A model generated the notes under the pieces. That model was not told where the DNA came from and ran no database searches. It worked only from the letters and a program-made list of their open reading frames with translations. 64,000 bases of DNA from an uncultured virus (IMG/VR IMGVR_UViG_3300011969_000080) (Duplodnaviria; Heunggongvirae; Uroviricota; Caudoviricetes): the IMG/VR virus record IMGVR_UViG_3300011969_000080; one strand, written 5' to 3'. Position numbers and translations under genes: made by a program. Positions 1,554 to 53,561 of the stretch are shown in pieces (the first letter of the stretch is position 1; each line of letters starts with the position of its first letter).

Positions 1554-1720
1554 CCGTTTCCGTAGGCACAGCTTCCGCCGTGCCGCTCCCCGTCCAGCCG
1601 AAGCTGGCGTAGGGGCCGCGTCGCTTCAGGAGACCAGGGTCCCCAGCGCAGCTGCACGCCACCCGAAGGTGGCCGATGTCTTACGGCTGCTTGCTTCGCC
1701 GGCGTCGCTCACGCCGCAAG
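1554..1720 (-). ncRNA. Putative omega-RNA scaffold / IS607-type right end of tnpB1
   Basis: Directly 3' of tnpB1: GTAAGAC, hairpin GCCACC-TTCG-GGTGGC, GAAGCG, CCCC..GACGGGGA, hairpin GGCACGGC-GGAA-GCTGTGCC, ending GGAAACGG, resembling actinobacterial IS607 ends. Confidence 0.6.
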
Positions 1721-3091
1721 AACAAGATCCCGCACCGTCGGCCCGGGCGGACTGCCCGAGCTTTCGGGTCGGGTCAGCCAGGCCCTGGCAAGGGCTGCCA
1801 GGTTCCGGGCTGCGTTCACATCACGGTCCAGGATCAGACCGCATTCCATGCAGTGGTACTCGCGCTCGGAAAGGGGCAGCTTGGCTTTCACTGCACCACA
1901 GTCCGAGCACGTCTTGCTGGATGGGTAGAACCGGTCGGCCCTGAATACGGCCGAACCGCGCTTGGCGGCTTGACGGGTCAGAATCTGCACAAACAGGCCA
2001 TACCCGTTGTCGCCGACGGACTTCCCGAACCGGTAGCCTTTCTTCCGGCGGGCCATCCCGCGCAGGCTCAGGGTCTCCACACCGACAACGTGGGCGTGCT
2101 CGGCGAGAGTGATGGCGAGGTGCTGCTGCCAGGTTTGCCGCTTGGATGCGGCCCGACCGTGCAGCTTCTGCACCCGGGCCAGTGCTTTCGCGTGCCGCCT
2201 GCTGCCAGGCGTGGTGCGTTGGAGCGCGCGCTGCGCAACGGCCAGGTCACCCAGCGCGCGGCGCAGGAACATGGGTGCGCCGATGTGGCCTACTTCGCCA
2301 GTCACGCCCGGCAGGGGCTTGTCGAGGGTGGCAAAGTGCCTGCCCATCCCGGCATCAACGCCTATGGCGTCGGCCCGTGGCGGTACACGGTGCCTGGTCG
2401 GCTGGGTTTTGGCGACGGGCAGGACCCGCATCTGCAAGGATGCCCACCAGTACCCGCCAGAGAACGAATACGCGACCTCCTGGACCTGGCCGCGCCCGTC
2501 CCGGATAAGCTTGGCGGCCCGCCGTCCGCGGTTGTCCTTCACGACTGGGACGCTCGAGAGCTGGACGGATCTGACGCGGCCGAGCCCGCGCCGCGCCGTG
2601 TTCGAGATTGGCAGCGCGAGCGCGCGGCCTCCGTCGGTGAGCCAGGCGGCGTCTTTCTCTTTGAAAGTGACCGGCACCAGGCCGGCGCCATCTCCGCGCT
2701 TCTTGCGGAACCGCGGGAACCGCGCCGACCCGGTCTTCCACTTCTTGAGCCCGTCAGCCAGCTGATGGGCTTGCCGATCCAGCACCAGGTACGGGACCTG
2801 CGCGTGCCAGGGCAGCCAGGCGCCCCGGTTCTCCCGGAGCAGCTCCTCCAGCCCGTACTTGTGCCACGACAGCGATGACGTGAGGTCCGCGTCGGGGATG
2901 CCGTAGGTCTTCTCCGCAGCCCGCTGGTCGAGGTTAGCTTTCACGTGGAACAGCAGAATGTTGTACGCGGCCCGTGCCGTGCCGCAGTACCCGGCAAGGA
3001 GCTCGACCTGAGCACGCGACGGGTTCAGGCGCAACTTCACTACCTGGGTCACGCCCTGGTCGGAACTGATGCGTGCGCGCGTGCTGTGCAT
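1709..3091 (-). CDS. tnpB: IS607-type TnpB RNA-guided endonuclease, intact, no adjacent TnpA
   Basis: N-terminal KLRLNP..GTARAAYN..KANLDQRAAEKTYG; RuvC motifs IGVDAG, VGVETL, DRDVNAARNL; Zn finger CSDC..CMEC. Confidence 0.92.
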   Translation of the reverse strand: MHSTRARISSDQGVTQVVKLRLNPSRAQVELLAGYCGTARAAYNILLFHVKANLDQRAAEKTYGIPDADLTSSLSWHKYGLEELLRENRGAWLPWHAQVPYLVLDRQAHQLADGLKKWKTGSARFPRFRKKRGDGAGLVPVTFKEKDAAWLTDGGRALALPISNTARRGLGRVRSVQLSSVPVVKDNRGRRAAKLIRDGRGQVQEVAYSFSGGYWWASLQMRVLPVAKTQPTRHRVPPRADAIGVDAGMGRHFATLDKPLPGVTGEVGHIGAPMFLRRALGDLAVAQRALQRTTPGSRRHAKALARVQKLHGRAASKRQTWQQHLAITLAEHAHVVGVETLSLRGMARRKKGYRFGKSVGDNGYGLFVQILTRQAAKRGSAVFRADRFYPSSKTCSDCGAVKAKLPLSEREYHCMECGLILDRDVNAARNLAALARAWLTRPESSGSPPGPTVRDLVLAA

Positions 3092-4234: not shown

Positions 4235-4390
4235 TCTTCTTCCTCACTGTGCTGGCGGTGTGTGACGCAGATCACCGTGGGCGCTACACCTCGCGACGCA
4301 AGGCCACTGCGGGATGCGGGATCTCGCGCAGGCGGGCACTGATTCCCGGGGTCAGTCAGCGGGGCGTGGCGGGCGGGTGCTACGCCAGGA

Positions 4391-4471
4391 TCGGCGGCAC
4401 GGCCCCGGCGGCCGTCACGTAATTGCAGGCGACGATGTGAACCTCCCCGCCCCTACGGGCGGGGCTTCTCG
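4391..4471 (-). ncRNA. IS605-type right-end hairpin and predicted guide of tnpB2
   Basis: Hairpin CCCCGCCCGTAGGGGCGGGG, then GGTTCAC (TTCAC at 4441-4437); same structure at 49751-49785, with divergence starting exactly after TTCAC. Confidence 0.8.
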
Positions 4472-5432
4472 TTAGACCGCGCGAGCGGCTTGGCGAAGGG
4501 CAGTTCCTGCCCTCAGAATGTTGATCGCGCCAACGACGTCGGCGTGACCGGTAAACCCACACAGCTGGCAGGTGAACACGGCCTGCGAGGGTCTGTTCGC
4601 TGCTTCGCAGTGCCCGCACTCGATGCAGGTGCGGGAGGTGTTGGCGGCCGGTACCGGAATGGTCTCGCGTCCAGCCTTTTCAGCTTTGGCGGTCAGCACA
4701 CTCAGGAACAACCCCCATCCCGCGTCCAGTATTGCTTTGTTCAGGCCCGACTTTGCGGCCTGACCGTTCGGTAGGTACTGGCCCGGGTTGTCGGGGTCCG
4801 GTTTGGGTTTCGCCCGCCGGGTCATGTTCCGGATCCGGAGCGCCTCATGGCAGATGACGTCGTGGTCCTGCACCAGTTTCAGAGCAGTCTTGTGGGCGTG
4901 GTCCAGGCGCTGCCGCCGGACCGTCCCGTGCAGGGCGGCAACTTTTTCGGCGGCCTTCCTGCGCCGGTTAGACCCGCGCTTGCGTCCGGAAAGCACCCGC
5001 TGGGCGGCGGCCAGTGTGGCCGCTGCGGACTTCCCAAACCTTGGGTTGGGCAGAAACTTCCCCTCGGAGGTGGTTGCAAACGACGCCACCCCCATGTCGA
5101 TGCCAGTGATCGCACCCGAGGGTGGCAGCGGCGTTGGGGCAACCTCGAGCGGGATTACCACAAACCAGCGGGTCCGCCGCCCGGACCCTTCACGCTTCAC
5201 CGTCACCGTTTTGGGGATGGCGCCCTCGGGCAGTGGTCGGTGCAGCCGAACCCGGACGTGGCCGACACCCATCACATACAGGCGCCTAGTCTCCGTATGG
5301 AGTTTGATCCCATTCCCGTGGCGGAAGTCCACACTGTCAAACCGGGCAGCGGCCCGAAACCTCGGGTACCCAGGCGCCTCCCCAGCTTTGACCCGACGGA
5401 AGAACGCCGCGAACGCCTTGTCCAGCCGGCGC

Positions 5433-6905
5433 CCCCCTCTATGATTTCGTTGTGATAACGGGAACACAGTTTGCAGCTGAACTGTTGACGAGTGTGGTTC
5501 CTGTTGTCGGCTGGAAGGGTTCAGCGTGCCGAGGTTGCCAGGCGGACCAGCGAAGAACCTGCCGCCATGCCCGAAGCCGGGGCACGCGCAGAGGCCGGTC
5601 GTCAAGGACGGCTCGTACGGGAAGCCGCCACGTCAGCTGTTCCGGTGCATCGGCGAGGTCGTCAACCAGAAGACGGGCGAGGTTCGCCAGTTCCACCGGT
5701 TCACGCCATCGCCGCCACGGCTGCTCCGGGAGTTCGCCGTGTGCGACAACTGCGACAACAAGGTTCGCCGCCACACCGGCCCGGTCAGCTCGCGCAGCTA
5801 CGCCTTCCCGGTTCGTGAGGTCGCCTCCGCGTTCGTCTCGGTCGGCACCGGCGCGTCCTACATGCAGGCAGCTGCCCGCGCTCGGGTCTCAGCCCACCGA
5901 CTCTTGGTTCGCAAGGACCAGGGCGGTGCCCTCGTAGCCGAGTGGCTCGACCTACTCGCACCCGTGGTTCTCGAGGCGTACGCGGAGGAAAGCTGGCCCG
6001 AGACGCTGGTGCTGGACAGCACGTGGTTCATGGCCGAGAACCCATGGACCCACACGCAGGAGCGGGCGTTCAGCGTCCTGGGCGCCTACGGCTACCCCGA
6101 CGGCGACGCTGCCGGCCGGCTGTGGGCGCTGCACGCGACGCACACCGCGGCACAGGCGGACTGGGAGACATTCCTGCGCGGTCTCGACCTCACCACACCA
6201 CCCAAGCTCGTCATCAGCGACGCCAACGCGTCCATCATCAACGCCGTGCGAGCCGTCTGGCCGGCCACCCCGGGGCCGAGCTTCCCCACGCCGTTCATCG
6301 CCCGCTGCGAGCTCCACCTTCACCGCAACGGGATGGAGCACATGGCCAAAGACCACATCGGCGGCTGGATGCACCCGCTGCGCAAGCGTCTGGGCTCCGC
6401 CTTCCTGCGCAGCGAGGGGTGGGACGAGCTGGTGGAGAAGGCCGACGGCTACATGCACACCGAGGCATGGCTGACCGACATCGCCGAGGTCCGGACCCAG
6501 GTTGCGGTGCGGCATCTGCTGCCCGCCCACCACTCGACCTCGGCGCTGGACCAGGCACTCGGCCGGGTCAGGGACTTCCTCTCCTCCCGCACCTTCGTCC
6601 TGCGCAACAAGCGACGCACCAACCTCGCGCTGGGTCTCATCCGCCTGCACCTCAACAGCGTTGACATCGAACGCAACTACGGGACGCGCCTGCGGGAGTA
6701 CCTCGATGCCCACGGTGGTGTTCTGCCCGCCCAGCGCTCCGGGAAGGACACCGGGGCAGGCCCGAGGACGGACCGCCAGCACCGGGTCCCAGCCTCGCTG
6801 CGCATCTGAGAACGCGGTCCGGCCCCCGACCACCCGGACGCATCCCTGCCCAGCCGAAATCGACCGTCAACCAGGGGACTTATCACAACGAAATCATAGA
6901 GGGGG
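5433..6905 (+). mobile_element. IS-A, 1473 bp, unclassified Mutator/IS256-like IS
   Basis: Perfect TIR CCCCCTCTATGATTTCGTTGTGATAA; 8-bp duplication GCCGGCGC at 5425-5432 and 6906-6913. Confidence 0.95.
5526..6809 (+). CDS. Transposase of IS-A
   Basis: Fills the TIR-bounded element; N-terminal Zn ribbon, VLDST, VISDA, CELH (CxxH), STSALDQ; homologous to 23590-24918. Confidence 0.88.
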   Translation: MPRLPGGPAKNLPPCPKPGHAQRPVVKDGSYGKPPRQLFRCIGEVVNQKTGEVRQFHRFTPSPPRLLREFAVCDNCDNKVRRHTGPVSSRSYAFPVREVASAFVSVGTGASYMQAAARARVSAHRLLVRKDQGGALVAEWLDLLAPVVLEAYAEESWPETLVLDSTWFMAENPWTHTQERAFSVLGAYGYPDGDAAGRLWALHATHTAAQADWETFLRGLDLTTPPKLVISDANASIINAVRAVWPATPGPSFPTPFIARCELHLHRNGMEHMAKDHIGGWMHPLRKRLGSAFLRSEGWDELVEKADGYMHTEAWLTDIAEVRTQVAVRHLLPAHHSTSALDQALGRVRDFLSSRTFVLRNKRRTNLALGLIRLHLNSVDIERNYGTRLREYLDAHGGVLPAQRSGKDTGAGPRTDRQHRVPASLRI

Positions 6906-7196
6906 GCCGGCGCAACGTCTGCTGTTGGGAGGTGAATGACCACGCGGCCTGGTCCGGGCGGGCCGCCCGGATCTCCTTGAGCTGCAGCATCTGTGACACC
7001 GCGCTGATCGACGTCCCGCGCATCCGCCAGGCGTCCCGCCGCTCCTGCAAACCTGCGTTGTACAGCTCGGCGTGCGCAGCACACATCGCCCCGAGAGCGT
7101 CACGCTGCTTGCTCGTTGGGTACAGCCGGAACTTGAACGCCCGCATCACGGTACTGACCGTGGGAGCCCGCCCCAAAACAGCAACGCGCCACCGGG

Positions 7197-8117
7197 CTAG
7201 GGCCCCACCTGGGCACGGAAGGGCCAGCTCGGCGGCACGGCCCCGGCGGCGGTGACGTAGTTGCAAGCGACGACGTGCTCCGCGCCCTGCGAGAACCTGT
7301 TTTTGATGTTCACCCCGTACCTGACCGGGTAAACGTGGACGATGAAGTCCCGATACAGCCCCTCGGTCAGCTCGGACTTGTCGATGACGACCATGAAGCT
7401 GGCGTGCTTGAGCGCGGCAAGACGGTCCCGGAGCTCGAGCTGCTCCTGGTCTCCGAAGGTCGCGCCGGCCGAGTACGTCTTCATGACCCTGGTGTACGGC
7501 GGGTCGACGTAGATGAACGTGTTCGGCTTGTCGTTGTCTTCGAGCACCCGGTCGTAGCTGCCCTGCCGGATGTCCGTTGTGGCGAGCAGCCCCGCGTGGG
7601 CTGAGCTGCGGAGGGCGGAGGCGTTGAGGGTCGTGTAGTGGCCGAACGGGACGTTGAACTCGCCGGCGGCGTTGAACCTGCGCATGCCCGAGAAGGCCAG
7701 CTGGTTGACGATGAAGAAGCGTGCGGCCCGCTGCCAGTCGGGGCAGCGTGCGAGGCCTCCCGCCCTGTCAAGGTTGCGGAAGTCGTAATACGCCTGGGCA
7801 CGCTGGTCGTGGGTGCCCCCGGGCCCAAACAGCGCGGAGACCGCGTCCACCGCGGTGAGAAACTGCGGGTCCTGCCGGGCGGCCACCCGGTAGAAATTGA
7901 TGAGCTCGCCGTCCCAGTCGTTGATGACGCTGTCCGGGTTCGCTAGGGACCAGTAGACCGCGCCCCCGCCGACGAACGGCTCCACGTACCTGTACCGCTC
8001 ACCGGCCGTGACAAAAGCCGGGTAGTGCGGGGAGAACCGCGCTATCTCGCGGCGCTTGCCGCCAGTCCATTTGAACAGCGGCGCGAGAGTGGCGGGGGCG
8101 GTCGGAGTCTTCGGCAC
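7197..8117 (-). CDS. dam: Dam-like (D12 class) DNA adenine methyltransferase
   Basis: KWTGGK, YVEPFVGGGAV, FNVPFG, YVDPPY; GTG start 8 nt after CACGGT. Confidence 0.9.
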   Translation of the reverse strand: MPKTPTAPATLAPLFKWTGGKRREIARFSPHYPAFVTAGERYRYVEPFVGGGAVYWSLANPDSVINDWDGELINFYRVAARQDPQFLTAVDAVSALFGPGGTHDQRAQAYYDFRNLDRAGGLARCPDWQRAARFFIVNQLAFSGMRRFNAAGEFNVPFGHYTTLNASALRSSAHAGLLATTDIRQGSYDRVLEDNDKPNTFIYVDPPYTRVMKTYSAGATFGDQEQLELRDRLAALKHASFMVVIDKSELTEGLYRDFIVHVYPVRYGVNIKNRFSQGAEHVVACNYVTAAGAVPPSWPFRAQVGP

Positions 8118-8518
8118 GCCCCGGGACCGTGGGTGCTCGGCCCGAAATGGCAACGCGCCGCCGGGCTAGAAGCCCCGGCTGAGCACGGGAGGGCCAGTGC
8201 GGCGTCACTGGCCCGCAAAAGATGGGGAGCACCGTGGGGTAATTGCATGATGCGCACGCGCCCCGTCTCGGGGTGACGGACGCCGCCCGCGCGCAGCTTG
8301 GCCCCCGGCCAGGCCCAGCGCAGGGCCGGAGGTTACCCCCACCCCCAGGCTCAGCCGCCTGAGCACCCGCGTCACACCCCTGCGCCCACGCGCCCGGGGA
8401 GTTCAGGCGCGGGCACCGCAGCGGCTGGGCCGGGGGCGGGGCACGACCACCTTGCCGGGCCAAGGCTCCGGACGAGGCGAACACCCACCCGTGTTCCGCC
8501 TACGCCCCGGAGAACCCC

Positions 8519-32745: not shown

Positions 32746-33633
32746 GTGAACGCCAAGCTTGCCGCCGCCCTAGACGACGCACGCGCCAAAGCCCTGAACG
32801 ACTTCGTCAAGGCCGCGACCAAGAAAGAAGCCGGGGCGGTGTTCACCTACAACACCAGGCCGGAGGCTGTGCCTGTCATCCGCACCGGTGCGCTCAGCCT
32901 GGACTTCGCCCTGGGCGTCGGCGGGATCCCCCGCGGCCGGGTCATAGAGCTATACGGACCCGAGTCATCGGGTAAGACGAGCCTTGCCTTATCTATCTGT
33001 GGGCAGGCCATCAAGGCCGGCGGCATGGTCGGCTTCGTTGACGTCGAGCACGCGCTGAACCCCAAGCACATGGAGGCGATGGGGTGCGACACGGCGTACG
33101 TCGCGATCGCCCAGCCGTCCTCGGGCGAAGACGCCCTGCAGATGGCCGAGACGATGGTGTCCTCAGGCCGCTTCGCGGTCGTCGTCGTGGACTCCGTGGC
33201 CGCGCTCGTCCCGCAGGCCGAGCTGGACGGGGAGATGTCCGACTTCTCAGTCGGCGCCCAGGCGCGGCTGATGTCCAAGGCGCTGCGCAAGCTGACCGGC
33301 CCATGCGCCCAGACCAACACCACGCTCATATTCATCAACCAGCTCCGGATGAAAATCGGAGTCCAGTTCGGGTCNNNNNNNNNNNNNNNNNNNNNNNNNN
33401 NNNNNNNNNNNNNNNNNNNNNNNNNNNNNNNNNNNNNNNNNNNNNNNNNNNNNNNNNNNNNNNNNNNNNNNNNNNNNNNNNNNNNNNNNNNGTACTCGGT
33501 GACCTCCACCGGTGAAGTCATCGCGCGTGGCAAGGACAACGCGATGGCCTACCTGTCGGAGAACCCGGTCCTGGCTGACGCGATCGCGGAAGAGTGCTAC
33601 GCGCTCCTGCTGGCCGACACCGTCGAGGCGTAG
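32746..33633 (+). CDS. recA: RecA recombinase, with a 117-N gap at 33375-33491
   Basis: [52 protein letters not shown]. Confidence 0.95.
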
Positions 33634-48942: not shown

Positions 48943-49332
48943 ATGACCATCGCCGCTGCCGACCTGCAGGAGCTCGCGGACGCCGCCGCCTTCGAGGCGC
49001 ACGCGGCGACCGCCCCGGTGCGCCTTGCCCGGGCCGCCTGGCTGATTGCGTTAGGCCTCAGCGATGCCGCGGAGGCTGCCCGGGCCGCAGCAGTCGACGC
49101 CCTGACCGACTACGAGAACTCGGCGTGCGACGACTGCAATGGCGTACTCGACCCGGACTGCTCCGGGTGCTTGGAACTCGGCGTGCCCTGCCCCAGTGAG
49201 TGCGGGCCCCTGTGTGACGACTGCGAAGAGCAGATCGGGGCCCTGTACACGCGCTCTGAGGATGCGGCCGACGCGGCGAAGGATGCCGTTGGGCTCGTGG
49301 ACGCCCTGTGGGCTGCCTACCTCGATGCCTGA
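48943..49332 (+). CDS. Acidic Cys-rich hypothetical protein
   Basis: GGAGG RBS; TTGCGC-N16-CAGGGT promoter; CDDC..CSGC..CDDC. Confidence 0.6.
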   Translation: MTIAAADLQELADAAAFEAHAATAPVRLARAAWLIALGLSDAAEAARAAAVDALTDYENSACDDCNGVLDPDCSGCLELGVPCPSECGPLCDDCEEQIGALYTRSEDAADAAKDAVGLVDALWAAYLDA

Positions 49333-49705
49333 GCGCCGGGCCCCAATCTCCAACAATGCCGCCGCGGGCACCCACGGTCCCTGCTACTGGCGGCCCACGC
49401 CGCCAGCAGGAAGGCGGCACCGTGCTCGGCGCACGCAGGGGTCCCCCGGCGGCGGCGGACCCCGCCCCCGTGCAGCGCAATGCTCTGCGGGCCGGGGCAG
49501 CGGCAGCCAGGCGGGTGCGCGACGGCGCGGACGAGGGGGCGTTGGCGGTGTGGTGTGACGACGGCGGCCGGGACGTGCGCGAGTCTCCCGAGCCCCACGG
49601 CGCCACCGGGGAGACACCTAACGCCTGGTTCTTCCTGTACTGGGCGTAGCTGCTACGCGACGTGGCGGCGGGCCGGCGGCTTGCACAGCGTGGTCACGGC
49701 GGGCC

Positions 49706-49785
49706 GCGTACTTGGCCGCGAGGGCGGCCATCTGGGTCCTCTCGTACTGCGTGAACCTCCCCACCCGTACGGGTGGGGCTCCTCG
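49706..49785 (-). ncRNA. IS605-type right-end hairpin and predicted guide of tnpB3
   Basis: CCCCACCCGTACGGGTGGGG hairpin, then GGTTCAC (TTCAC at 49755-49751). Confidence 0.8.
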
Positions 49786-51104
49786 TTAGGCCGCGTGAGC
49801 GGTTTGGCGAAGGGCAGTTCCTGCCCTCAAAATGTTTATCGCGCCAACAACGTCGGCGTGACCTGTGAACCCACACCGCTGGCAGGTGAACACGGCCTGA
49901 GATGGCCTGTTCGCTGCTTCGCAGTGCCCGCACTCAACGCAGGTGCGGGAAGTGTTGGCGGCCGGTACCGGAACAGTCTCGCGTCCAGCCTTTTCAGCTT
50001 TGGCGGTCAACACACTCAGGAACAACCCCCATCCCGCGTCTAGTATGGCTTTGTTCAGGCCCGACTTCGCGGCCTGACCGTTCGGCAGGTACTGCCCCGG
50101 GTTGTCCGGATCCGGCCTGGGCTTAGCGCGCTTGGTCATGTTCCGGATCCGCAGGGATTCGTGGCAGATGACGTCGTGGTCTTGCACGAGTTTCAGGGCA
50201 GTTTTGTGAGCGTGGTCCAGGCGCCGTAACCGGATGGTCCGGTGTATCGCAGCGACCCTCTCGGCGGCTTTCCTGCGCCGGGCAGACCCGCGCTTGCGAC
50301 CAGACAGCACCCTTTGGGCGGCGGCCAGCTTGACCGCAGCGGCCTTCCCGAACCGCGGGTTGGGCAGGAACTTGCCCTCAGAGGTAGTTGCAAACGACGC
50401 CACACCCATGTCAATGCCCGTGATCGCGCCTGAGGGCGGCAATGGTGCCGGGGCCACCACGAGCGGGATGACCACAAACCAGCGGGCCCGCCGCCCCCCT
50501 CTATGATTTCGTTGTGATAACTGGGGCCGCGCAGCACGTAGATCCCTTGTGGCACAAGCCTTTCGCCAGGCCGGCGGCCGGATCTATCACAGTCAGATCA
50601 TGGAGGGGGCCGCCGCCCCGACCCCTCGCGCTTCACGCTGACCTGGCCCAGGGCGGCTCCCTCAGGCAGCGCCCGGTGGGGCCGAACCCGGACGTGGCCG
50701 ACGCCCATCACGTACAGACGCCTGCTCTCCGGGCGGAACTTGATCCCGTTCCCGTGGCGGAAGTCCACGCTGCCAAACCGGGCTGCGGCGCGGAACCTTG
50801 GATACCCCGGCGTCTCCCCGGCCTTTACCCGGCGGAAGAATGCCGCGAATGCCTTGTCCAGTCGGCGCAACGTCTGCTGCTGCGATGTGGCCGACCACAC
50901 CCCCTGGTCCGGGCGGGCCACCCGGATCTCCTTGAGCTGCAGCATCTGCGACGCCGAGCTGATTGACTTCCCACACACCCGCCAAGCGTCCCGCCGTTCC
51001 TGCAAGGCGGCGTTGTACAGCTCGGCGTGTGCCACGCACATCTGCCCGAGAGCGTCACGCTGCTTGCTCGTCGGGTACAGCCGAAACTTGAACGTCCGCA
51101 TCAC
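49786..51104 (-). pseudogene. tnpB: tnpB3, close paralog of tnpB2, interrupted by a 115-bp MITE
   Basis: Removing 122 bp restores a 1197-nt ORF (KREGSGRRARWFVV); RuvC D/E/D intact. Confidence 0.93.
50495..50609. mobile_element. MITE-A, carrying the IS-A TIR
   Basis: Left end identical to the IS-A TIR; variant right TIR; TSD CCGCCGC. Confidence 0.9.
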
Positions 51105-51378
51105 CCCACTGACCGTGGGCGCCCCCTGCCGGCAGGACAACCTGGTAAACGGCGGCATGACGGCCCGCGAACGCCGGAGGGGGCCACCCCCGCCCTCCCG
51201 GACCCTGTTCGGCGCTAGTGGGACTTGCGGGCGCGTGGCAGGCACTGATCGTGGCGCCTACGCGCTCGGGGCAACGACGGGCGAGCACGCACAGGGCGGT
51301 GCGGGTAGCCGCCTCGCTGGGCAGACTACCTAGCCGGCGGCCAGTCTGTATCGCCAGCCCGCCAACGAGCATGTTCAG

Positions 51379-51562
51379 CGGCCGCCGCAGGTGGCGGGGG
51401 TGCCTGGCCCGGGCCGGGAGCCACAAAAAGCCCCTACCAGGCCCCGCTAATGCCGAGCAAGCCAGCCTGCTGGGTGGGGAGCGGCACGGCGGAAGCTGTG
51501 CCTACGGAACCGGGGGTTGCGGGAGCTCGCACCCTGCGAGTACCCGCCCGTTGCCGTACTGG
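51379..51562 (+). ncRNA. Orphan homologue of the tnpB1 omega-RNA region
   Basis: 34-nt exact match 51476-51509 to the reverse complement of 1558-1591, plus conserved hairpins. Confidence 0.55.
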
Positions 51563-51596
51563 GCGACTGGGGTTTTTCGTACTGGCCGTGTAGTGG

Positions 51597-53510
51597 TTAG
51601 GCGGCGTGGCGGCGACGAGCCAGCGGCTTGCGCAGCGCGGTCACGGCGGGCAGCTTGTCCCCGGGCCGGCGGGCGTCACCCAGCAGGCTGAGCCAGTCAC
51701 GCAGGTGAAGCTGGGCAGCCACGTCGTCCTCGTTATAGCACCGAAGGCGCTCGATGTTCGCGGCGGCTACCTGGGGGTTGTTGCTGGCCGCGGCGCGGTA
51801 CCAGACCATGGACTGGTCCCCGCCGGGGGTGTTGTCCCGCCAGGAGAACCGCGCCCACTTCGCGAGCGACTTGATCGAGTGGCTCTGGGTGGGCCACACG
51901 AGCTGCTTGTGCAGCACCTCGTACAGGTCCACAACCATGTCGGAGCCGAAGAACTCGTGAACCTCGCCGACGGTGGGAACCCCGCGGCCACCGGCGTACT
52001 TACCGGCCAGGGCGACCATCTGGGTCCGCTCGTACGCCGTGTAGTGATAAAAGCAGATGGAGTGTCCACCCTTTGCGGCTTTGGTGATCATCCGCTGGAA
52101 GTACCGCCACGTTTTGACGAACACGGCCCGCTCGCCGCCCGGGGTGGCGGTGTAGTTGTCGAACGTGTTCATTTCGGTGCGCTCGCGACCGGAGCGGCGA
52201 CCCGTCTGCTTGCGGCCGGTGGCCAGGACACCCCACATGTACACGAGGTTCTCGGAGCTTCCGGCGGCGGTCGCGTTCTCGCAGTCAAAGTCGATCTCGA
52301 TGTCTGCACGGGGCAGGTCCACGAACTCGACGCCCGCGTTCCGGGCGACCTTGCCAGCGGCAAACACCCGCGCCTGACGAATGTGCTTGACGTCGGTGAG
52401 GTCTGCGCCGCGAACGTCCATGCGGGCCAGGCTGCGAATGTCGGTGATACCGCGGCGGTAGAAGGGCTGCGCGGCTGTCGGCGTGACGCCGGGGAGGAGG
52501 GTGATGTGGCCGCCGTCGCCGTAGGTGCGGAGCTCCTCGGCGCACACGGTGCGCCACGGGCACTCGGCGCACGCGGTCTTCTTCTCGGGGAGCACGATGG
52601 ACGCGACGGTCGGGTCCAGGTTGCGCACGACGGCGTTGTCCACGACGGCCATTGCACGGGCGAAGTTCGCGTCGTACAGCTCGAGGGCCGTGTGGGCGGC
52701 AACCGGGCCGCCGTCAGTCAGCGCCTTGCGGAACATCTTCGCGTCCAGGCGGGCCCAAACGAGCTTCTCCTCCTTGCCGATGACCGCACCCCAGGGGGAG
52801 AGGCCGTTGTCTACCACGCCGAGGCTTTCGCCGTGCCGGTAGTAGTGGGACAGCTGCATCCAGTCTTCCAGGTGCAGCGCGCCGGTGAACTCCTCGCTGT
52901 CACCGTAGGGGTCGTAAGGGCCGGCGAAGTCGGACACGGGGGCGGACTTTGGACGGACTGTTTTGCCGCTGAACGTTTTGTGCCACTTGACGTCCACGAA
53001 GGACATTGAGCGCAGGCCGTTGGCCATAACCGGTCCGAACACGATTGCGTCCGGCTCGCTGATCCGGTCGGTGTCAGAAACGTCCGCGCCCAGGTGCGCC
53101 GAGAGCAGCGCCTCAAACACAGACCCGATGCGTGCGTTGAAGATCATCGCGACACCCGGGTTGAGCCAGGCTGCGAAGGTTGCCGCCTCCTTGGCGGCTT
53201 TGCCTTCCGCGGTGCGCTCCCCGGTCTCGTCGCGAGCCTCCACGATGGAGACCACGGTGCCCGGTGTGGCAGCGGCGACGATGTCCAGGCCGATCTTCGT
53301 CTCAAACAGGTTGCCGGAGTTCATCAGGTCCGCGGTGAACGCGGACGGGTCGTCCCGCAGTGTCACCGGGTACAGGTTTGGGCTGTGGTCCTTGCTGAGC
53401 GCCTCCGGGCAGGTCTTGGCTGCGTACCCACCAAGGCGCGAACGCTGTGGCGCGGTTACTGCCACCGGGGTGCTCGGCGGGGTCTGGCAGGAAATCGAGG
53501 AAGTGTTCAT
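51597..53510 (-). CDS. TM0106-like nuclease: PD-(D/E)xK/Cas4-like domain plus RNase H-like (YprB) domain
   Basis: EPD..VDVKWH..QLSHY..CAECPWRTVC; IDFDCE..FYHYTAYE..VDLY..SIKSLA..YNEDDV. Confidence 0.85.
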   Translation of the reverse strand: MNTSSISCQTPPSTPVAVTAPQRSRLGGYAAKTCPEALSKDHSPNLYPVTLRDDPSAFTADLMNSGNLFETKIGLDIVAAATPGTVVSIVEARDETGERTAEGKAAKEAATFAAWLNPGVAMIFNARIGSVFEALLSAHLGADVSDTDRISEPDAIVFGPVMANGLRSMSFVDVKWHKTFSGKTVRPKSAPVSDFAGPYDPYGDSEEFTGALHLEDWMQLSHYYRHGESLGVVDNGLSPWGAVIGKEEKLVWARLDAKMFRKALTDGGPVAAHTALELYDANFARAMAVVDNAVVRNLDPTVASIVLPEKKTACAECPWRTVCAEELRTYGDGGHITLLPGVTPTAAQPFYRRGITDIRSLARMDVRGADLTDVKHIRQARVFAAGKVARNAGVEFVDLPRADIEIDFDCENATAAGSSENLVYMWGVLATGRKQTGRRSGRERTEMNTFDNYTATPGGERAVFVKTWRYFQRMITKAAKGGHSICFYHYTAYERTQMVALAGKYAGGRGVPTVGEVHEFFGSDMVVDLYEVLHKQLVWPTQSHSIKSLAKWARFSWRDNTPGGDQSMVWYRAAASNNPQVAAANIERLRCYNEDDVAAQLHLRDWLSLLGDARRPGDKLPAVTALRKPLARRRHAA

Positions 53511-53561
53511 GTACAGCACAGTGCGCGCTGTGCGGAAATCACAAGGGGGCGCCGGGGCCTA

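Follow-up and report, generated by a model that had tools for sequence, protein, structure and literature searches.

The tnpB3 locus and the gene upstream of it

The subject of this analysis is tnpB3, one of two closely related TnpB-encoding elements (the other is tnpB2) in a 64,000-nucleotide stretch of DNA from an uncultured virus (IMG/VR record IMGVR_UViG_3300011969_000080; the whole stretch is here called the window). tnpB3 is a stranded, broken IS200/IS605-family tnpB element, containing tnpB only and IS1341-like. It lies behind an intact gene for a TM0106-family RecB-like nuclease, and past its right end, at the guide position, stand two pieces of the 3' end of a different allele of that gene, of the type of the database protein P0002. 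The features of the locus, in reading order on the minus strand, are as follows.

51597..53510, minus strand: TM0106-family RecB-like nuclease gene, intact; 637 amino acids (aa) from the ATG at 53510 (GTG start at 53519 in the list of open reading frames [ORFs])
51994..52038, minus strand: resident ("self") site resembling the guide; first 20 nucleotides (nt) at 52038-52019, after ..CACTACAC
51219..51596: spacer of 378 nt from gene stop to element; the flank at the element ends ..GTCCCAC (51228-51218)
51102..51217, minus strand: degenerate left end of the tnpB3 element, of which the 3' ~100 nt align with the canonical left end
50610..51101, minus strand: N-terminal part of tnpB3, HTH_OrfB_IS605; ATG at 51101; the frame enters the inserted element that follows and stops
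50494..50609: 116-bp miniature inverted-repeat transposable element (MITE) splitting tnpB3; terminal inverted repeats of ~27 bp; duplication CGGCGG at 50615-50610 and 50493-50488
49786..50493, minus strand: C-terminal part of tnpB3, OrfB_IS605 plus Cas12f1-like TNB; D/E/D and Cys4 columns kept; stop at 49788-49786
49751..49980, minus strand: complete scaffold of the guide RNA (omega RNA), with the right end; terminal hairpin, 49779-49759; last bases GGTTCAC, to 49751
49706..49750, minus strand: guide position and remnant piece 1, P0002-type allele; encodes TQYERTQMAALAAKYA
49627..49707, minus strand: remnant piece 2, comprising the last ~15 codons, a stop (49655-49653), and 26 nt from behind the gene; its frame differs from that of piece 1

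The nuclease protein matches TIGR03491 with 139.4 bits (cut-off, 97.45) and PF13482 (E = 3.6e-13). In tnpB3, PF12323 was found in the N-terminal part (E = 5e-9) and PF01385 (E = 2e-20) and PF07282 (E = 2e-19) in the C-terminal part. A search with TnpB returned thousands of relatives, those of Streptomyces and Frankia being ~60% identical.

The two ends of the element differ in their state of preservation. The left end of close relatives (70 to 83% identity) measures ~122 nt and carries a hairpin; in tnpB3 the first ~22 nt, including the 5' hairpin arm, are unrecognisable, and what is kept of the left end has a local alignment score of 67, the highest among 200 shuffles being 43. At the other side, TTCAC (49755-49751), behind which a preliminary description of this locus made from the sequence alone had placed the guide, is confirmed as the right end by two comparisons: tnpB2 and tnpB3 are 81 to 87% identical over 51124-49751 and their homology stops exactly at 49751 (4437 in tnpB2), and 10 of 10 aligned related elements terminate in GGTTCAC. 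The last 200 nt of the two copies are 91% identical. The terminal hairpin of tnpB3 reads GCCCCACCC-GTAC-GGGTGGGG (folding z score, -3.5), and one of its pairs occurs as AU, GC, and UA in a 10-sequence alignment; no Rfam family matches the guide-RNA scaffold at its gathering score. No Y1 transposase TnpA was found in the window by tblastn with TnpA from related loci (best E = 0.25), and the MITE is missing from related tnpB contigs in Logan. With the ORF interrupted and the element unable to transpose, the cassette has no means of acting by itself in this genome.

The insertion motif of the family can be read from its canonical members: among close relatives, the left flank ends in CCAC at every distinct site of insertion (7 of 7). 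At one of these loci (L009) the element sits as a clean in-frame insertion in an NADH-dehydrogenase (ndh) gene, whose junction reads VVVIGSGFGGLFA-T-QALKRADVD only with a cut at CCAC|. The left flank of tnpB3 ends in CCCAC, about where canonical elements show CCAC. The site in the nuclease gene is preceded by ACAC and the corresponding site in dam, the gene upstream of tnpB2, by GCAC; the element's own right end reads TCAC at the same position. It would thus be by position -4 that a site open to cutting is told from the end of the element itself.

Allelic sequence past the right end

Realignment of the sequence past the right end reproduced the match first described for this locus. On the minus strand, 49750-49706 is identical to 52038-51994 at 37 of 45 positions, with the mismatches already reported at guide positions 2, 3, and 11 and further ones at 24, 31, 34, 36, and 37; with the CAC of TTCAC included, the BLASTN match is 40/48 (E = 2e-10 in a search space of 391 x 2101 nt). 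A second match joins 49707-49627 to 51654-51571 (67/86, 7 gap positions; E = 1e-13). The earlier reading of this second segment as the last codons of the gene therefore holds, and the remnant's TAG at 49655-49653 aligns with the TAA of the nuclease gene. By the BLAST coordinates, 341 nt are absent between the two pieces, in agreement with the ~340 bp said to have been deleted while the guide part was kept. This loss places piece 2 out of frame with piece 1, and because of that shift the small ORF 49764..49618 passes through the stop at 49653 named in the preliminary description. The post-stop sequence of the intact gene, 51596-51571, is found again behind the remnant. No remnant-side sequence was found to resume inside the spacer, and the sequence downstream of the remnant is without the relic of tnpB1 type (tnpB1 being another tnpB of the window) that follows the intact gene. 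Taken together, the two pieces, the frame shift, and the post-gene sequence bear the signature of a displaced gene end and not of a tailored guide.

For comparison with other members of the TnpB family, 80 loci were collected from JGI metagenomes; 13 were without a stop or right end, 18 had too little flank, and 49 were testable, of which only three (L004, L005, and L009) are close relatives (at least 70% identity). The first 30 flank bases agree with the upstream region at 26 of 30 positions for tnpB3, against 18/30 on the opposite strand and a maximum of 20/30 at the 49 related loci. Chance similarity between flank and upstream gene is ruled out by the BLASTN E values and this comparison.

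The allele from which the remnant came was sought in an alignment of P0001, a database protein identical to the window's nuclease, with the best 30 of 76 database relatives. The guide remnant and the self site encode TQYERTQMAALAAKYA and TAYERTQMVALAGKYA, respectively, as the preliminary description had it. P0002, which is 626 aa long and 81% identical to the window's nuclease, reads CFYHYTQYERTQMAALAAKYAGG at the site, exactly the peptide of remnant piece 1, and is the only one of the 30 aligned homologues to do so; another homologue, P0003, has TAYERTQMVALAGKYAG, as does the resident gene. All three amino acid differences between the remnant and the resident gene are as in P0002. Since P0002 carries the remnant's exact peptide in an uninterrupted ORF, the remnant is best seen as a piece of a real, circulating allele of the P0002 type. 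Two expectations of the earlier account are thereby borne out, namely that an intact allele encodes the guide's peptide and that what survives downstream belonged to the 3' half of the gene in a different allele.

The resident nuclease gene is itself a mosaic. Informative sites are P0002-like or P0003-like in the ratio 5:28 over residues 81 to 256, 51:9 over residues 257 to 460, and 20:14 over residues 461 to 637 (Fisher p = 0.006 for the last two segments), from which it follows that recombination among alleles is frequent here. An "immunising" conversion patch at the site was considered, residues 492, 499, and 503 being P0003-like amid P0002-like ones, and was dropped, as the whole of 461 to 531 is a fine mosaic.

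The self site falls at residue 491. It had been described as a conserved motif, which is correct insofar as H489, Y490, and E494 do not vary in the alignment of 31 nuclease homologues; the 7-codon target window as a whole ranks only 183rd of 631 for conservation (70th percentile), and that in dam ranks 184th of 300 (38th percentile). The idea that a specially conserved motif is targeted was rejected on these ranks.

The same layout recurs at the dam locus, as had been claimed.

7197..8153, minus strand: dam methyltransferase gene, complete; PF02086; TIGR00571, 164 bits; self site starts at 7274 after GGAGCAC
4380..7146, minus strand: tnpB2 cassette; N part 7146-6907; C part 5431-4472; right end 4437; dam remnant 4436-4380

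Only 50 nt separate the dam stop from the tnpB2 ATG. The flank after the GGTTCAC of tnpB2, 4436-4392, matches dam at 7274-7230 (91% over 45 nt; E = 4e-14), and its first bases agree with the upstream region at 25 of 30 positions; relative to resident dam, the guide has mismatches at positions 1, 9, and 15. The left end of tnpB2 is not significant (score of 26; 95th percentile of shuffles, 40). No dam allele with the C terminus of the remnant was found among the 120 matches listed, the nearest having 65% identity. The last 10 codons of resident dam (..PPSWPFRAQVGP) look frame shifted by 1 nt relative to the remnant, which ends ..PPILA, and the remnant's ending is closer to the tails of relatives (PPVL, PPSL, and PPFL) than the resident tail is. 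Judging from these endings, the tail of the "intact" resident dam may be the derived one.

Origin of the arrangement

The explanation that we favour, with a probability of roughly 55%, is that recombination between two related replicons attached a stranded IS200/IS605-type element to its present flank, leaving the order intact gene, element, displaced 3' end. Its observed parts are, on one side, the right boundary, the two remnant pieces with the 341-nt deletion, and the allele type of the remnant and, on the other, the damaged left end, the lack of tnpA in the window, the MITE-split ORF, and the same layout at dam and tnpB2. The right end of the element would have been joined to the near-cognate ..ACAC| (..GCAC| in dam) of the other replicon's allele, by nonallelic recombination between the two related replicons, either through TnpA acting at a near-cognate site or through CAC microhomology. 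From one parent would come the sequence through its intact gene and the element, and from the other all that lies from the site onward; the product would retain a functional gene and the element, followed by a brief duplication of the gene's tail, which then decays. That the guide resembles the upstream gene needs no further cause, since any DNA standing past the right end serves as guide in this family. Combinations in which the resident gene still matched the guide would be cut, and only mismatched ones would survive.

Canonical members of the family exchange their flanks as well. Over the 3.7 kb that lead up to the right end, L004 and L005 show 89% identity, and past it they are unrelated; for L007 and L009 it is the left flanks that are unrelated, the identity being 98.8% from a point 5 nt ahead of the left end. 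These boundaries point to guide or flank exchange in canonical elements too. The L007 contig is short, and chimeric assembly is possible there.

Several observations weigh against recombination as a sufficient account. Both copies of the subfamily in the window (2 of 2) show a layout seen at none of the 49 relatives, which is odd for a pure accident. Remnant piece 1 has 16/16 peptide identity to P0002, while piece 2 is visibly decayed. The founding recombination event is one that we infer from the sequence. Moreover, tnpB2 and tnpB3, although perhaps already immobile, appear to have been working nucleases until the recent transposon insertions, as is suggested by purifying selection, kept catalytic columns, and complete guide-RNA scaffolds. 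The dN/dS ratio between them is 0.10 over 708 nt and 0.23 over 237 nt, with a dS of ~0.4 to 0.5. All alignment columns that are at least 97% D, E, or C in 107 full-length relatives are kept in both (D191, E275, D377, and C348/351/367/370 in the numbering of P0077), the D/E/D columns being those we take to be the RuvC catalytic residues. P0077 is an intact 398-aa TnpB paralogue encoded outside the window, 90% identical to tnpB2 (NF040570, 256 bits; cut-off, 100); the contig on which it is recorded has the length of the window's source contig (133,593 nt), and it might use the guide RNAs of tnpB2 and tnpB3 in trans.

These points lead to the rival that survives best, which we regard as possible but doubtful: allele-directed, RNA-guided homing or exclusion, in which the cassette acts like a free-standing homing endonuclease and cuts P0002-type alleles in co-resident relatives. 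The homing cassette would comprise a replacement gene 3' end, the spacer, tnpB, and the guide RNA, with the displaced native gene end as guide. Repair from the cassette-bearing genome would copy the cassette together with the immune replacement end, the host gene would stay intact, and the broken copies would be either recent casualties or still supplying guides to the intact P0077. In favour of such homing are the same layout at two different genes, the occurrence of the exact guide peptide in the intact ORF of P0002, the seed mismatches of the resident copies (positions 2, 3, and 11 in the nuclease gene; 1 and 9 in dam), the purifying selection on tnpB with its intact catalytic residues and scaffold, and the different allelic make-up of the 3' third and the middle third of the nuclease gene, which co-conversion would give. 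There is also a precedent in the fliC_P-tldR loci, where an adjacent homologue escapes through changes in the target-adjacent motif (TAM) and seed.

Against homing, both tnpB ORFs are interrupted, and the targets are preceded by ACAC and GCAC where the family motif is CCAC and the uncut right end reads TCAC, so that the nuclease would have to read position -4. At an allele divergence of ~17%, a seed mismatch is expected by chance in ~9 of 10 cases, which makes the "immunity" uninformative, and the target windows are not specially conserved. P0002 is known as a protein only, which places its match with the guide at the peptide level, and a closely matching dam allele was not found among the matches listed. 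The cassette-free joint 52038-to-49750 is not among the best-supported Logan joints listed, an absence that proves nothing. For these reasons (split ORFs, noncanonical sites, and windows of ordinary conservation), the proposal of the preliminary description that TnpB attacks non-self alleles of adjacent genes is not supported in the form in which it was made. Its extension to a general TnpB system finds no footing either, as the layout in which the flank matches the upstream gene occurs at 0 of the 49 testable loci of the same TnpB family (none above 20/30).

A broader form of the homing idea, which we hold to be unlikely, is that the TnpB/guide-RNA cassettes without a left end on this soil replicon are RNA-guided counterparts of the free-standing homing endonucleases of phages and carry immune replacement 3' ends. 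On that supposition the broken copies may feed guides to P0077 on the same replicon, in a primitive multi-guide arrangement. If homing were true, TnpB would distinguish alleles and drive itself, with a linked gene segment, into rival genomes. An allele-directed drive would require exactly what is seen at the two loci, namely, an undamaged gene mismatched to the guide, a nuclease with its whole guide scaffold, and guide sequence derived from another allele; the same two loci show how such a structure can arise as a by-product of recombination. If they are only fossils, they document the reassignment of a TnpB guide by flank exchange, which is relevant to the origin of CRISPR-like targeting. In either case, a right-end flank matching the upstream gene provides a search image for other mobile elements.

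Insertion of the element in or beside the second of two tandem gene copies, followed by deletions, is very unlikely. The ..CCCAC flank at the left end of tnpB3 is compatible with a primary insertion downstream of a first copy, and deletions are evident in the remnant. This model nevertheless requires that dam and the nuclease gene each existed beforehand as tandem copies, ~17% diverged; a second 5' fragment was found for neither of them in the rest of the window, the tnpB1-type relic is absent downstream of the remnant, and none of the 30 aligned homologues, which are proteins without genomic context, hints at tandem pairs.

Least credible of all is a metagenome misassembly in which the intact gene came from one strain and the element with the remnant from another, joined at a repeat: the soil metagenome does hold many tnpB paralogues (summed depth over tnpB, 5 to 10 times that of the flanks), Logan contigs do break at 49811, 50467/50489, 51125, 51505, and 52006, and the relic at 51461-51562 is such a repeat, but independent Logan contigs bridge the right end, remnant, and downstream sequence (49098-49811) and tnpB3, its left end, and the spacer (50610-51505) with 0 differences, both tnpB insertions have matching 6-bp duplications, only 50 nt and no repeat lie between dam and tnpB2, and the same nuclease protein is found on three contigs. 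Three runs of one study of this soil metagenome contain the window sequence; in run X1 the bridging contigs have depths of 9.8 to 15.8, similar to that of the contig of the nuclease gene. The paired 6-bp target duplications show that each tnpB is one piece. A chimeric join is thus unlikely, its weak link being the repeat at 51461-51562.

Comparison with known systems

TnpB preserves its transposon by cutting the empty site after excision. The TnpB/omega-RNA elements of the IS200/IS605 family and their "transposon homing" are treated by Karvelis 2021 (PMC8612924) and Meers 2023 (10.1101/2023.03.14.532601). tnpB3 resembles them in its domain set, in its RuvC D/E/D and zinc-finger columns, in having as guide the DNA past the right end, and in the overlap of the guide-RNA scaffold, which stops at the right end, with the 3' end of the ORF. 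It differs from them in that a complete, different allele stands to its left and not the other half of an interrupted target, and in its damaged left end, the lack of tnpA in the window, a site other than CCAC, and the broken ORF.

Intronless homing, or localized marker exclusion, by the free-standing homing endonucleases of T-even phages (SegF and others) is covered in a 2026 review (PMC13565253). Table 1 of that review sets out intron, intronless, transposon restorative, and transposon nonrestorative homing and contains no TnpB that tells alleles apart by substitutions; in a full-text search, this review was the only item found to pair TnpB with "intronless homing." As in the phage systems, tnpB3 is the neighbour of a conserved gene whose counterparts in relatives would contain the target, substitutions set the resident copy apart, and co-conversion of the flank would be expected. 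The difference is that recognition by an RNA guide would force the keeping of a copy of the target, the remnant, beside the nuclease gene.

The fliC_P-tldR loci (10.1101/2023.11.30.569447) are prophage-borne, TnpB-derived, RNA-guided repressors, in which TldR is nuclease dead and targets a promoter. As described there, they share with tnpB3 a TnpB relative without transposon ends on a mobile element, a guide that matches a homologue of the adjacent gene, and an adjacent copy that escapes by TAM and seed changes; tnpB3 is unlike them in its kept catalytic residues and in a match that lies inside coding sequence as part of a longer gene remnant. Neither TldR hallmark (a dead RuvC domain and a C-terminal truncation) is present in tnpB3, the catalytic columns being kept and the C terminus being full length relative to P0077. 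Some integrating elements, such as prophages and islands in tRNA or tmRNA genes, carry a replacement 3' end of the target gene and use an integrase and an att core. The order of intact gene, element, and displaced native 3' end is common to these elements and the present locus, which differs in having no integrase and in repeat copies that are 9 to 22% diverged.

Two further insertions bear on the history of the window's tnpB elements.

5432..6906, plus strand (ORF): terminal inverted repeat (TIR) element inside tnpB2, 1,475 bp; perfect inverted ends of at least 27 bp (28 bp by BLAST); duplication CGCCGG
51461..51562, plus strand: inverted tnpB1-type relic, the last ~100 nt of a right end and guide-RNA scaffold; 82% identical to 1608-1503 (87/106; E = 3e-26)

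The 427-aa ORF of the TIR element (5526-6809, plus strand) has no Pfam or PHROG match and resembles IS256 only faintly, the match (E = 3.6e-4) scoring far under the cut-off. The MITE in tnpB3 shares its ends with this element, which indicates that one transposon family struck both tnpB copies. The TIR element and the MITE are the only two copies in the window, and both lie inside tnpB genes, with 6-bp duplications at CG[G/C]CGG. The tnpB1-type relic shows compensating changes relative to 1608-1503, and Logan loose ends at 51469 indicate that full copies of its source exist elsewhere in the samples; its presence in the spacer implies that the spot downstream of the nuclease gene has been struck repeatedly by such elements. 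The would-be guide of the relic is the complement of the post-stop region of the nuclease gene. tnpB1 itself (1709-3091, minus strand) is intact, encodes 460 aa with 28% identity to tnpB2 and tnpB3, and has an IS607-type TnpB as its best NCBIfam match; between its 3' flank and the region upstream of it there is no match.

No match to the window was found in phage collections, nor were close relatives of the locus found in the phage collection (DNA or protein) or, with the nuclease, in IMG/VR. With TnpB, IMG/VR gave only a match of 39%; one match of 31% came from the genome collection. The window looks like part of a replicon and has a GC content of 69%, a run of N at 33375-33491, and many ORFs without a family match. 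Its genes include those for two DNA methyltransferases, a sigma factor, a DnaB-like helicase, a replication-initiator-like protein, and a HIRAN protein, together with a folC-like gene and dnaK-grpE-dnaJ.

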